Shown: in pieces, positions 29,801-54,900 of the stretch | Layout: every line of letters starts with the position of its first letter | Numbering within the stretch: the stretch's first letter is position 1 | Origin: Lingula anatina | Lineage: Eukaryota; Animalia; Brachiopoda | Direction of reading: 5' to 3' | NCBI GenBank assembly: GCA_051362555.1 | Contig: CM120649.1 | Span: 17,250,567 to 17,314,566 of the forward strand | DNA: 64,000 nt | Program-made: the position numbers and the translations under genes | Notes under the pieces: generated by a model | Database searches by the model: none | Told to the model about the DNA's origin: nothing | Seen by the model: only the letters and a program-made list of their open reading frames with translations

Positions 29801-32800
29801 GTCAAAAATATTTTTAATAGCCCAGAGCAAAAAGTTTTGTAAATAATATTGGCGTTGATACGTATTTCTAGAAATGTTCTTTATCACTTCTTCAGTGGTG
29901 TACTATTTGAGAGACTACTGCTTCAACAATATCTTTTTAATAATTTTGATCATGAGAATACAAACATTTTTAAATACTACAATTATGATATTAATATCAA
30001 TCATTAGTCCTTCTTATGAAAATACGAGTGAGTACATGTAAATCTTACACCAAACTGATTGATATAATTTCATGATAAGTGGCCACACATTGTTTACCTC
30101 CCAGTTTGACTAATGGCTATATATCTCTTTCACTCATTCATAAAAATTTAGCTACAAACTTTGCAGCATTGCTTGGAAGAATATGATACACAAGCACGGC
30201 AAGCAAAACATATTTTACCTTTTTGTTTCAGTTACACTGTACCTAGGCCCCCAAGCCGTTACTTCACGGATATGCCCACTAGTTTTGTTTTTACGTTGCC
30301 AGCGAATGTCATTAAACATTCCTAATGGGTCTCCAAAGAATCCTTCACATATGAAGGAAACATGCTGCCCATGTTTCCTTTTATGTACCAGCACTCCATC
30401 TGTCAGCCTCTGTTTGGGGGGTTGCATCTGAGTGTTTATGAGTGCTATCAACTCAAGACTCCATGTGCTTGCCAAACTAACTTTATTCAAGATATCACTA
30501 CGCAGAGTGATTAGGTTGTAGTGAGTGCTAGGGTTATAGGTATATGTATATACGCATAACAAAGTAGTTCTATTTACATCTCCCCTTTTCTAGAAAGCTA
30601 TAACAATTAAATTACTGGACTGCTGTAACTGTAGCTCAGTATTGCTAGCTCTAGATAGTCCCTTGATTTTGGCACTGTAACTTTTTACTGATTGTATTTC
30701 TAATGAATAACTTTGAGTGCTTTAAGTAAAGTCAATAATGAACAATCAACATTAACATCAAAGTCAAACAATCAACATTAACATTAAAGTCAACATTTTT
30801 TTAAAATGTTCAATGAAAGAAAAGTCTGTCCTCCTGAATGAATTTGATCTGACAGTAATTAACTGTGACAAATAAACAAACAGTCTCTGAATGATTGCAA
30901 ACTTTGCAATGTTAACAGTCTCTTATATTCAGTCTTTAGTGTACTCTCAACAGTCTCTGAATTCACTTTCAACAGTCTCTAATTTTAGTGTATTCTCAAC
31001 AGTCTCTGAATTCACTTTCAACAGTCTCTAATTTTAGTGTATTCTCAACAGTCTCTGAATTCACTTTCAACAGTCTCTAATTTTAGTGTATTCTCAACAG
31101 TCTCTGATTTCACTTTCAACAGTTTGTCAATTACAGTCTGTCTGATCCTTTCCTTTCCCAGAAGGTAAAGTAAAAAGAATGTCACTGAAAATATTGCATA
31201 ACTTAGTGCTTTCCTGCACTGGCACTCTGAAATAACAATACATAACAAACACAAATGAATGTCAGTCCTCATGTATGGTTTATTCCTCTATCAGTCTTTT
31301 GGGTGGTCTTATAACTCTCCCACTTCTCGTAATTTTCGCACTGTCCTGATTATCTGGTTTCATATCCCCTGAATCTGGTGATAATTTGTGCTGGTCTGGC
31401 ATTTTCAGGATGTGTCTTCTGTTCCTACGGAGTTCACTGCCGTCATCACACTGGACATTGTAAGATCTCGGGGCCGTTTCCTTGGTGATTATCCCTGGTT
31501 TGTTGTAACCTGTTTTGCTTTCCAGCATGACTCTGTCACCTGGTTGCAAGGCTGGGAGTGGTTTAGCTGTCTTGTCATATGTGTTTTTCTGCTGTAATCT
31601 CCTTTCTGAAAGGCGGTGTGTGATTATCTCTGGGTCGAGTATTTTCTGAGCTAGTAATGATTCATCTATAGGTATGTCACTTTTGGTGCGACGTGCCATC
31701 ATCCTCTGGGCCGCTGATCCAAGCACTGGGTCTCTTGGTACATTTCTGCTATTGAGCAGGTTTAAATAAGGGTCACTGCCTTCACGTGCACTTTTCTCTA
31801 GAAGCGCTTTTGCTGCCTGTACTGCTCTTTCTGCCAATCCATTACTAGACGGAAAATGGGGGCTACTGGTTACATGGTTGAACTTCCAAGCTTGGCTGAA
31901 TTCCTTGAATTCTCTGGCACTGAATTGTGGACCATTGTCAGAAATGAGGATGTCTGGAATGCCAAATCTTGCAAAATGCGACTTAAGTTTTTTTATAACT
32001 GTTGCACTGGCTGTACTGTTCCCTAGAGTGTTGACTTCATACCAGCTAGTGTACGAGTCCACTGTTACCATGTAGTTTACACCTCTCCATTCGAATAAAT
32101 CTGTAGCCACAATAGACCATGGTCTGGTCGGTACTGGGTAAGACATAAGTGGTTCTTTCTGCTGGTGCTTTTTCATAGACAGGCACACGGTACAGTTTTC
32201 TACAATACTGTCAATGTCTTTCATCATGCTGGGCCAATACATTATGTCTTTTGCCCTTGACTTTGTTGCTTGACAGCCTCCGTGTCCTCTGTGTGCTTTC
32301 AATGCATATTCATGCTGTAAAGTTGCTGGTACGATGATCCGGCTTCCTTTCAGCACTACACCTTGATCAACTATGATCTCATCTCGGAATGCGAAATATT
32401 GTCTCAAATCTGGGTCACAGTTCTTTTCACTTTTAGGCCATCCCTCATGAACTGCATTGCATACTTTCTTCAGTATAGGGTCCTTGGCTGTGGCTGCTTT
32501 TAGCTCTTCCATCCTGTAGTCTGCGACAGGTATTATGGACAGAACTTCCACGTCACTGCTCTCAGTTTCATCCTTGCCTTCATTCAAGTATGCCCTTGAC
32601 AGTGTATCAGCAACCAACAAATCTTTCCCTTTCTTGTACACCAGTCTGATGCGGTATGGTTGCAGCTGTAGTAGCATTCGTTGCAGTCTTGCTGGGGCAC
32701 TTGCTAGTGGCTTTTTCCATATGGAGATCAGTGGTTGGTGGTCAGTTTCAATGGTTATGTCCTTGCCATATATATAATCTCGGAATTTTGCGCATGCAAA

Positions 32801-51900: not shown

Positions 51901-54900
51901 ACGACAGTAGCAAGTCACTTACACTCCAAGTTGACGCTTCATCTTATGGATTAGGAGCTGCCTTAATCCAGGATAAAGGCCCAGTTGCATATGCTAGCAA
52001 AGCACTCACAGAAACAGAGTCACGTTACTCCAACATTGAACGCGAGATGTTAGCAGTAGTGTTTGGTCTTGAAAAGTTTCACCATTATGTCTATGGTAGA
52101 CATGTTAAAGTAGAGACTGATCACAAGCCTCTAGAAGCCATTTTCAAGAAGCACCTACACAACGCACCACCGCGTCTGACCCGCATGTTGCTGAGAACGC
52201 AGTGTTATGACACAGAGATTGTGTATGTCCCAGGCAAAAATATAGGACTAGCTGATGCCCTCTCTCGCATGAAACCTTGTGATGGTGACGATATCAAAGG
52301 ACTTGACATTACAGTACATGAATTACACTCGTACATGAACGCAAGTCCAACACGCATTGAGCAAATTCGCGAGGAAACTAGTAAGGAACCACAGCTAGCA
52401 GCTCTTCGTGAAATGATTTCTGTAGGATGGCCAGCTACACGCAGCGAGTGTCCAGAAATTCTTCACCCATACTGGAACTACCGTGATGAGTTAGGCATCG
52501 CAGATGGAATCATAATGAAGGGGAATAGGATGATTATTCCTACAGTACTTCGCCCTGACTTACTTAAACAGCTACATTATGCCCACCAGGGAGTGGAGAA
52601 ATGTAAGCTACGTGCAAAATCATCAGTATTCTGGCCTGGCATGAATAATGATATTGAGCACACAGTCGGACTGTGTCCACCTTGCCAGAAACACCAAGCT
52701 GCCAACAGTAAGGAACCCTTATTGCCAGCAGATGTACCTCCCCGCGCATGGCACACATTAGCAGCAGATTTGTTCTATTGGAGACAAACTGACTACTTAT
52801 TAGTTGCTGACCAGTACAGCAAATATCCTTTAGTGAGGAAACTTCCAAGTACATCATCAGGCAGTGTAATTGCACACTTAAAGAGCATATTCGAGGAGCA
52901 TGGCATCCCTGAGATTCTTAAAACTGACAATGGACCTCAGTTTTCATCAGAAGGATTCAAAAACTTCGCAAACACTTGGGGATTTACGCACATCACATCC
53001 TCACCTATGTATCCGCAGTCAAATGGATTCATAGAACGAATGGTACAGACTGTTAAAAGTCTATTTCAGAAAGCATGGGAATCAAATTCAGATCCCCACC
53101 TATCCATGTTATGTCTTCGCACAACACCCATTGATCACAACCTACCAGCGCCTTGTGAGTTATTGAATAACCGGAAGTATAAAACAAATATTCCCGCTGG
53201 ACAGTCACAGTTGAACTCCGACTACAATGTAGCATTACAGAAGAGACAGAACGCAAGTAAAACCCACTATGATCAGCATGCCCAACCACTTGCACCTTTA
53301 CATGAAGGAGAATTTGTTCGCATGTATGACACTCAGAATAATACATGGCAACCTGCCAAAGTTAAAACTGTATCAGACAAACCCAGATCTTATTATGTGG
53401 AATCCAATGGTGGAATTTACCGACGCAACAGGAAACACATTCATAAGACAAAAGAACATTTTGATTTCAGAAACAATGAGATTGAGGAAACTGATGAACC
53501 TCTTGTTGACATTACAAACACAGAGACTGTTACAAAATGTGAAACACCTCAGTCTCAACCCTTACGCAGATCAAGCAGGAACATTAAACCTCCAGAGAGA
53601 CTGAACTTATGAATAAATTCAGTAATAGTGACTGTAACAAGTCAGTTGTGAAAGTGTCACAAATTGACTGTAATTTGAATAAGCTAAATCATAATTGTTT
53701 CATTTATGAACTCTGGACTTGAGATTCTGTTGACTTTTGTGTTAAAACAAAAAAAAAAAAAAAAAAAAAAAAAAAAACATTTACATGTGCCTATGAACTG
53801 TTAACATTGAAATGTCTTGGAGACAAAGACAACACGGACAGTGAACTGATTATGTTTATTAGCAACTTAAAAAAAAAAATATTTCCAGGATTTATTTTTA
53901 TTAAAAAAAAAAAAAAGGGAGATGTTGCATATTATAATGTAATTAACATATCTCCCATAATGCATTGTTCTTTCTCTACCAGTTAGCCAGCATGGCTGGA
54001 TGTGTTATGTAATAAATGAGTTATTAAAAAATGTTAACTTGAGTTACATAACAACAGAAAAACTACGACACTCAGTTACTGGAAATGCAACAAAAACACG
54101 AGACAGACTTGGCAAACAAAATGGCAGCAGAAGAGTCAAAAGAAGAAGAACTGAAGCAACAGCATGCACTGCTGCTGGAAGACAGTCAACAAAAAATAAA
54201 CGAGCTCGAAGAGGCAATAAGGGAATTGGAAAAGCAAAGTGCTGATTTAAAAGAGCAGCTGAAGCAGGGAGAAGAAGCCAGGGAGAAACTACAAGGAGAA
54301 AAGCAGGATTTGATTGTTCAGATGCAAGATATAAAGAAAAGGGAAGTGGAAATCCAACAGCGAGCAGAGGTAAGTAGAGATGATGTTAACAAATCAAACT
54401 GAATGAAAGATTTGGTTAAATTTTTGTTGTAGCATGTTATATGGAAGTGATGTTTCTGTTTTATTATACATTTTTATGGAGTGGGTACAAAGTATCAAAA
54501 TGTTAAGTTTATGGTTTGTCATATAGATTTTGATTGGTCATATTGAATTACTTCATCAGGTCAACTTTAATATTTTTAGTAACCTTGTTTTAAGACTTCA
54601 GACAAAACAGAATAACTTTTCATCTCAAACCTACAAATTGTGTAAATAGAGTAAATAAAATTCATAAAAAAGAAAGATTTTAATCTTGACAGAATAATGA
54701 GGAAACTTGGATTTATCACGAAGATGGGTTAACTTGAGGTATCTTGTTTCTTGCTTCAGATGGAAGACAATGAGAGAGTCAGTGAACTTGAGAAGAAGCT
54801 GGCGGAGACACAGGCTGCTGTGAAGTCGAATGAAGAGAAGTCCAACAAGTTCAAAATCTTGGCTGTCAAAGGGAAGAAAGAGACTGCTGAACTGAAGAAA

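Follow-up and report, generated by a model that had tools for sequence, protein, structure and literature searches.

Steamer and its kin, a group of Ty3/Gypsy retrotransposons with long terminal repeats (LTRs), are the closest described counterparts of the elements considered here. Steamer duplicates 5 bp of its target and is biased both towards regions upstream of genes and towards the motif CATN-nnnnn-NATG lying outside the target-site duplication (TSD) (PMC10663159); it moves between species (PMC10294476), and the Steamer-like element MchSLE1 is 4758 bp long with a 185-bp LTR (PMC11046912). In Drosophila, 43,316 de novo events of six transposons (including blood, HMS-Beagle, 3S18 and Max-element) show that new LTR insertions are enriched 2.15- to 2.46-fold in exons with no strand bias, track H3K36me3 and expression, and are depleted from germline exons (PMC10018349). 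Here, we describe two intact Ty3/Gypsy elements that interrupt coding exons of adjacent genes in the brachiopod Lingula anatina, within a stretch of 64,000 nucleotides (assembly GCA_051362555.1, contig CM120649.1, positions 17,250,567 to 17,314,566 of the forward strand), referred to as the window and supplying all coordinates below. These two distantly related elements are likely to be recent, rare, gene-breaking insertions that selection has yet to remove, a reading to which we give a probability of roughly 0.68, and the pattern likely reflects a loose leaning towards exons, of a kind already known, and not a system dedicated to targeting them.

Both elements are intact and young-looking. 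Each has paired LTRs running from TG to CA, a primer-binding site (PBS), a polypurine tract, a TSD within the 4–6 bp usual for Ty3/Gypsy elements, and a single uninterrupted Gag-Pol open reading frame (ORF) in which reverse transcriptase, RNase H and, last, integrase follow in the Gypsy order. Their parts, and the host genes and exons that they divide, are as follows.

30433..35344, minus strand: element 1, full-length Ty3/Gypsy LTR retrotransposon, 4912 bp
35199..35344, minus strand: element 1 5′ LTR, 146 bp, TG..CA
30433..30578, minus strand: element 1 3′ LTR, 146 bp, identical to its 5′ LTR
35345..35349, minus strand: element 1 upstream TSD, CTCAG, with a G before it
30428..30432, minus strand: element 1 downstream TSD, CTCAG
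35181..35198, minus strand: element 1 PBS, 18 nt, common to element 2
30579..30591, minus strand: element 1 polypurine tract
31280..35131, minus strand: element 1 Gag-Pol ORF, 1283 aa, with zinc knuckles, protease motif, reverse transcriptase, RNase H and integrase
31292..31330, minus strand: element 1 integrase tail motif TRSGR...PP.RL, a candidate nucleosome anchor
49424..54070, plus strand: element 2, full-length Ty3/Gypsy LTR retrotransposon, 4647 bp
49424..49571, plus strand: element 2 5′ LTR, 148 bp, TG..CA
53923..54070, plus strand: element 2 3′ LTR, 148 bp, identical to its 5′ LTR
49419..49423, plus strand: element 2 upstream TSD, CTCAG, with a G before it
54071..54075, plus strand: element 2 downstream TSD, CTCAG
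49572..49589, plus strand: element 2 PBS, 18 nt
53903..53922, plus strand: element 2 polypurine tract
49686..53612, plus strand: element 2 Gag-Pol ORF, 1308 aa
53565..53603, plus strand: element 2 integrase tail motif RRSSR...PP.RL, a candidate nucleosome anchor
23883..36834, minus strand: gene for an Ig-domain transmembrane receptor whose architecture is IL-1R-like; 7 coding exons and, with element 1 removed, 622 aa
35345..35376, minus strand: segment of receptor gene exon 3 lying upstream of element 1
30219..30432, minus strand: segment of receptor gene exon 3 lying downstream of element 1
39955..62920, plus strand: GCC2 gene, encoding a GRIP golgin; 30 coding exons and, with element 2 removed, 2158 aa
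46555..49423, plus strand: segment of GCC2 exon 10 lying upstream of element 2 (the exon measures 3163 nt once the element is left out)
54071..54369, plus strand: segment of GCC2 exon 10 lying downstream of element 2

An original prediction, made from the letters of the window, had placed two intact Gypsy elements in exons, in sense orientation and between copies of CTCAG preceded by G, and its coordinates, LTRs and TSDs are all confirmed. The two are also as different as it had claimed: the longest matches between LTR 1 and LTR 2 are at most 8 nt, and the Gag-Pol proteins are 35% identical. Neither element has an env ORF or a further long ORF with a family match. We take the shared PBS to be of the tRNA-Leu type. 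The 3′ untranslated part of element 1 holds a tandem of 49-bp units (30886–31130). Gag-Pol relatives of both elements number in the thousands and occur in aquatic animals, with identities of up to 62% and 67% among the best 120 relatives of each element. The closest among the matches listed come, for both, from starfish, corals, fish, snail and amphioxus, and the names among those matches are K02A2.6-like or Gypsy only; the best solved relative of element 2 is Ty3 Gag-Pol (E 3e-59).

Element 1 lies in exon 3 of the receptor gene and element 2 in exon 10 of GCC2, both in sense to the host gene. In exon models that were seeded by hand and snapped to AG/GT (the bounds of receptor exons 3 and 4 being set by hand), leaving out the element and one TSD yields a stop-free ORF in GCC2 and in the receptor gene, as the prediction had it. 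The naming of GCC2 as host of element 2 is borne out by Rab_bind and GRIP matches over the Pfam cut-off, and RNA reads show that the gene is expressed and confirm splice joints 3′ of exon 10. The other host had been called IL-1R-like, of which an Ig-domain membrane protein stands by architecture; its Ig matches in Pfam are all sub-threshold and the receptor protein has no Pfam match to a TIR domain, so that the name is a label based on architecture judged by eye.

Translation from the host frame into the LTRs meets a stop after CK (2 codons) and CCIL (4 codons), and A(A/T)TAAA is present in both LTRs, where transcripts may end at the polyadenylation signal; therefore both filled alleles are predicted to be nulls, probably carried over a working copy. 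One of the two options in the prediction was a shared targeting mechanism, perhaps with neutralisation of the insertions at RNA or DNA level. In its fullest form this would be a dedicated system of exon targeting, with sense insertion at coding GCT-CAG tolerated through RNA splicing or precise DNA excision, and it is true that both young elements of the window lie in exons in sense orientation, share one target site and are the sole lesions of their host genes. However, although the TSD permits exact removal in six or seven equivalent registers, none of 8 registers checked for each element is of the GT..AG or GC..AG type that would restore host mRNA, and GT..AG is missing because a GT sits one base either side of the register ending in AG. 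By scoring matrices built on the 55 donors and 55 acceptors of the window, junction donors reach –3.8 to 2.9, where real donors have a median of 8.7; the TSD acceptors score –3.0 and –4.0, where the median for real acceptors is 10.1. The best in-frame cryptic pair, which would retain LTR sequence, scores 6.7 against about 19 for the median real pair. Exact splicing-out was thus rejected, and with it neutralisation of the insertions at that level. Moreover, neither element has a recombinase or extra ORF of at least 120 aa with a family match, and element 2 is missing from other animals (see below), whereas a tolerated insertion might have risen to high frequency by drift. We regard dedicated exon targeting as very improbable.

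Reads over the element 2 region were examined in 4 of 21 runs: DNA runs X1 and X4, and RNA runs X12 and X15. The insertion site is empty in all four, although contigs drop rare variants and could hide a filled allele in these animals. A single 4127-nt contig of X1 runs unbroken across the empty site, the empty joint has a depth of 76.5 in X4, and a search for RNA spanning it, as had been proposed, found 10 reads in X12 and 5 in X15, in animals with the empty allele. The option of a very recent, rare null allele, which the prediction had also allowed, therefore fits element 2. The family to which element 2 belongs (family 2) is present elsewhere in X1 and X4, where its depth is several times that of the host (a figure that does not give copy number), and sense transcripts of it occur in X15. 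At 13 of the 25 element positions listed (40 of 279 rows), no contig of either DNA run agrees with the window copy, which thus appears to derive from a variant lineage.

These observations bear also on a different account, in which a somatic or culture-specific burst placed the elements, or the assembler phased two insertions onto one sequence, so that selection never met both together. Identical LTR pairs, a site empty in all runs examined and a window copy from a variant lineage would all suit it, and Steamer bursts somatically in clam neoplasia (PMC10663159). However, a somatic insertion would reach the assembly only if clonal or frequent, identical LTRs are compatible with up to 2% divergence, and the perfect TSDs speak against a plain misjoin; we consider this account quite unlikely. 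A library artefact at a restriction site (that of DdeI) was rejected by reasoning, as it would not yield a whole element with a 5-bp TSD.

Three further features of the reads concern element 2 and its exon. A family 2 LTR variant with a 9-nt duplication (positions 49441 and 53940) occurs in X1 and X4. At position 49744, 22 RNA reads of X12 pass from element 2 into foreign sequence, and most first mates in this bin lie on the strand opposite to GCC2 reads; they perhaps represent an antisense or chimeric transcript of another family 2 copy. Within GCC2 exon 10, an in-frame 3-nt insertion polymorphism is present at position 48254 in X4, X12 and X15.

A strict shared target, CTCAG in a fixed codon phase, had been put forward for both families, and the flanks of other copies depart from it. 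Flanks of other family 2 copies were taken from 18 of 48 loose ends, a biased subset, probably because flanks fitting both LTRs equally were set aside in the read analysis. They include TAGAG followed by C (X4, 3′ side), xAGTG (X4, beside an LTR that has diverged), and three contigs from X1 in which the final AG of the TSD is matched and the preceding C is not (majority CTA|AG, agreement 0.59). CTCAG is found at 0 of these 5 visible flanks and AG at positions 4–5 in 4 of 5, while 3′ flanks that begin with CT form no group among the loose ends listed. As none of the visible flanks is CTCAG, a fixed target for family 2 is unsupported, and what they offer are hints of a weak preference for ..AG or CTNAG. 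A usable LTR end was available in 18 of 80 related metagenome loci; after dropping L064 (whose flank duplicates that of L065), L078, L079 and the 5′ side of L050 (unclear ends), and leaving out two short viral-contig loci, 20 flanks from 15 loci were counted, two of them on both sides. Among these LTR-adjacent 5-mers, 0 of 20 are CTNAG, 1 ends in AG, 16 begin with G/C and 10 end with G/C. CTNAG is therefore no clade-wide target, and a weak preference for G/C ends among the relatives would be compatible with CTCAG.

An alternative account holds that both families share a strong preference for a palindrome of the (G)CTNAG(C) type, whose concentration in coding DNA would lead them into exons by sequence alone. 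It would explain why both TSDs are CTCAG after G and why AG recurs in the other family 2 flanks; 59 of the 153 CTNAG sites of the host window are in coding DNA, and Steamer is itself biased to a palindromic site, although of another sequence (PMC10663159). Against it stand TAGAG and xAGTG, neither of which is CTNAG, the lack of a CT-starting group of 3′ flanks among the ends listed, and the complete absence of CTNAG from the 20 flanks of relatives, with the caveat that the visible family 2 flanks are a biased subset. We judge it unlikely.

How unexpected the coincidence is depends on the null that is chosen. Coding DNA makes up 12,497 of the 54,431 host bases of the window (23%), and the probability that both insertions would fall in it is 5% if positions are uniform, rising to 28% if exons are favoured 2.3-fold; both would be in sense in 25% of cases by chance. 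The G+C content of coding DNA is 47% as against 35%, and it holds 48 of the 89 CTCAG/CTGAG sites of the host window. Several of the shared features that were originally read together add little. Coding DNA has 24 sense CTCAG sites, of which 13 end where a codon ends, and 9 sense GCTCAG sites, of which 7 are read as Ala-Gln; insertion at a codon boundary after Ala-Gln is therefore not an independent sign but largely follows from GCTCAG in coding DNA. Short LTRs and a common PBS likewise fail as marks of a shared system and are traits of the clade, because the PBS motif directly follows CA in 28 of 80 related loci and complete LTR pairs of relatives measure 116 to ~240 bp; for the Mag C training LTRs the mean length is 174 bp (PMC3601003, Table 1). 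The remark that other mobile elements of the window lie outside exons probably sets young insertions beside old ones that have decayed and come through selection. What is left – both exonic, both in sense, same 5-mer – is a real oddity, picked post hoc from a very large scan.

Several points weigh against reading the elements as recent, rare insertions with a loose exon preference. The same 5-mer at both sites has a chance of ~1 in 650 under a uniform null, or ~1 in 2,200 counting the G, and still ~1 in 40 if 30% of insertions used CTNAG (assumed shares). For two predicted null alleles to lie 14 kb apart on a single assembled sequence, either the load of such insertions must be high or luck was involved: with 20 coding insertions per haplotype 0.02–0.06 such pairs are expected, and with 50, 0.13–0.39 (assumed numbers); the alternative would be a somatic burst or phasing by the assembler. 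The read-based rarity covers element 2 only. The three X1 flanks ending in AG, although from the biased set of 18 of 48 ends, hint at a real CTNAG-like preference in family 2, and the relatives' flanks belong to other species and mostly to collapsed contigs, with a perfect TSD pair at L031 only and a near-perfect one at L021. The identical 5-mer and the two predicted null alleles at such close quarters are left unexplained.

A possible route into exons is suggested by the ends of the integrases, both of which finish, past a variable linker, in R-S-x-R-x(3-4)-P. A strict form of this motif matches 55 of the 120 tails scanned, compared with 8 of 3151 control windows, and a relaxed form, set after the tails had been inspected, in the last 45 aa of 176 of 240 relatives (P0001–P0240) against 26 of 6336 control windows. 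A conserved short arginine motif at the protein end is what a LANA-like anchor calls for: LANA binds nucleosomes through LRSGR, as established with a peptide and a non-binding mutant (PMC5426901), and the candidate counterparts are TRSGR in element 1 and LRRSSR in element 2. LANA is, however, a herpesvirus protein, and its likeness to the Gypsy tails is five residues long. In Arabidopsis, the C-terminal portion of the integrase sets centromeric versus gene-rich targeting of Tal1 and EVD (PMC11735389), which are plant Copia elements, unlike the Ty3/Gypsy elements here. No title on this integrase tail or on a CTNAG bias of Gypsy elements was found in the literature searched, outside which most subscription papers lie.

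The R-S-x-R tail may tether integration to nucleosomes. Nucleosomes are dense on GC-rich exons. On the preferred reading of recent, rare insertions, the integrases would favour GC-rich, nucleosome-dense gene bodies, possibly via the conserved basic tail; as they would lean only loosely towards sites that have G/C ends or finish in AG, coding GCTCAG would be a good target, and the identical 5-mers would be part preference and part chance. Sense read-through would then stop after 2 or 4 codons, perhaps ending at the LTR polyadenylation signal, and leave a null. In its widest form, which we put forward as a doubtful proposal, the Mag/Steamer-like Gypsy elements of aquatic animals would combine a LANA-like tail on the nucleosome acidic patch with a CTNAG-leaning cut, would be drawn to the nucleosome-dense exons of AT-rich genomes, and would be a main source of rare nulls. 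If the tail is a nucleosome anchor, a very widespread clade would gain a targeting mechanism that can be tested, and these elements would be linked to the burden of rare harmful alleles that aquatic invertebrates carry.

The remainder of the window holds one more gene and several repeats. A ubiquitin ligase gene (149–14589, minus strand), which we presume from its motifs to be TRIP12-like, was modelled with 21 exons and continues past the window edge; its N-terminal region has two LRRSTR motifs resembling the element 2 tail. A decayed Tc1/mariner-like transposase remnant, judged by eye, lies at ~20300–21500 (minus strand). Intron 6 of the receptor gene is filled by a satellite of 146-bp units (24986–28468, ~23 copies, some of 123 bp); a relationship to the 146-bp LTR 1 was rejected, as the sequences are without similarity. 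Between the head-to-head receptor and GCC2 genes are two foldback elements resembling miniature inverted-repeat transposable elements (37116–37531 and 37818–38691), with arms of 110 nt and 361 nt, and GCC2 intron 6 contains duplicated repeat blocks (42060–44469) in which two frames are open, for 214 aa and 172 aa.

Compared with described systems, both elements look like members of the Mag-related/Steamer-like lineage, in which they are placed by layout: short LTRs, one Gag-Pol ORF and a double zinc knuckle. As in Steamer-like elements, the single ORF is of ~1300 aa, the total length ~4.7 kb and the TSD 5 bp. They differ from MchSLE1, for which the PBS is given as Asn (PMC11046912), and the CATN/NATG bias of Steamer was rejected as an explanation, since neither of the two sites matches it. 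Introners enter exons, show a TSD whose last letters are AG and are spliced out exactly. The present elements are unlike them, with no GT..AG register at either. A looser, chromatin-guided exon bias is plausible by analogy with other LTR elements, and in Drosophila fresh insertions are likewise enriched in exons and then purged, leaving surviving exonic copies young and rare (PMC10018349). The comparison is of many insertions with two events, both in sense, in another animal. Within those bounds, two active Gypsy families have yielded predicted null alleles in adjacent genes, which agrees with the exon bias and subsequent purging described for Drosophila; the elements belong to a known kind and behave as published for young LTR insertions.

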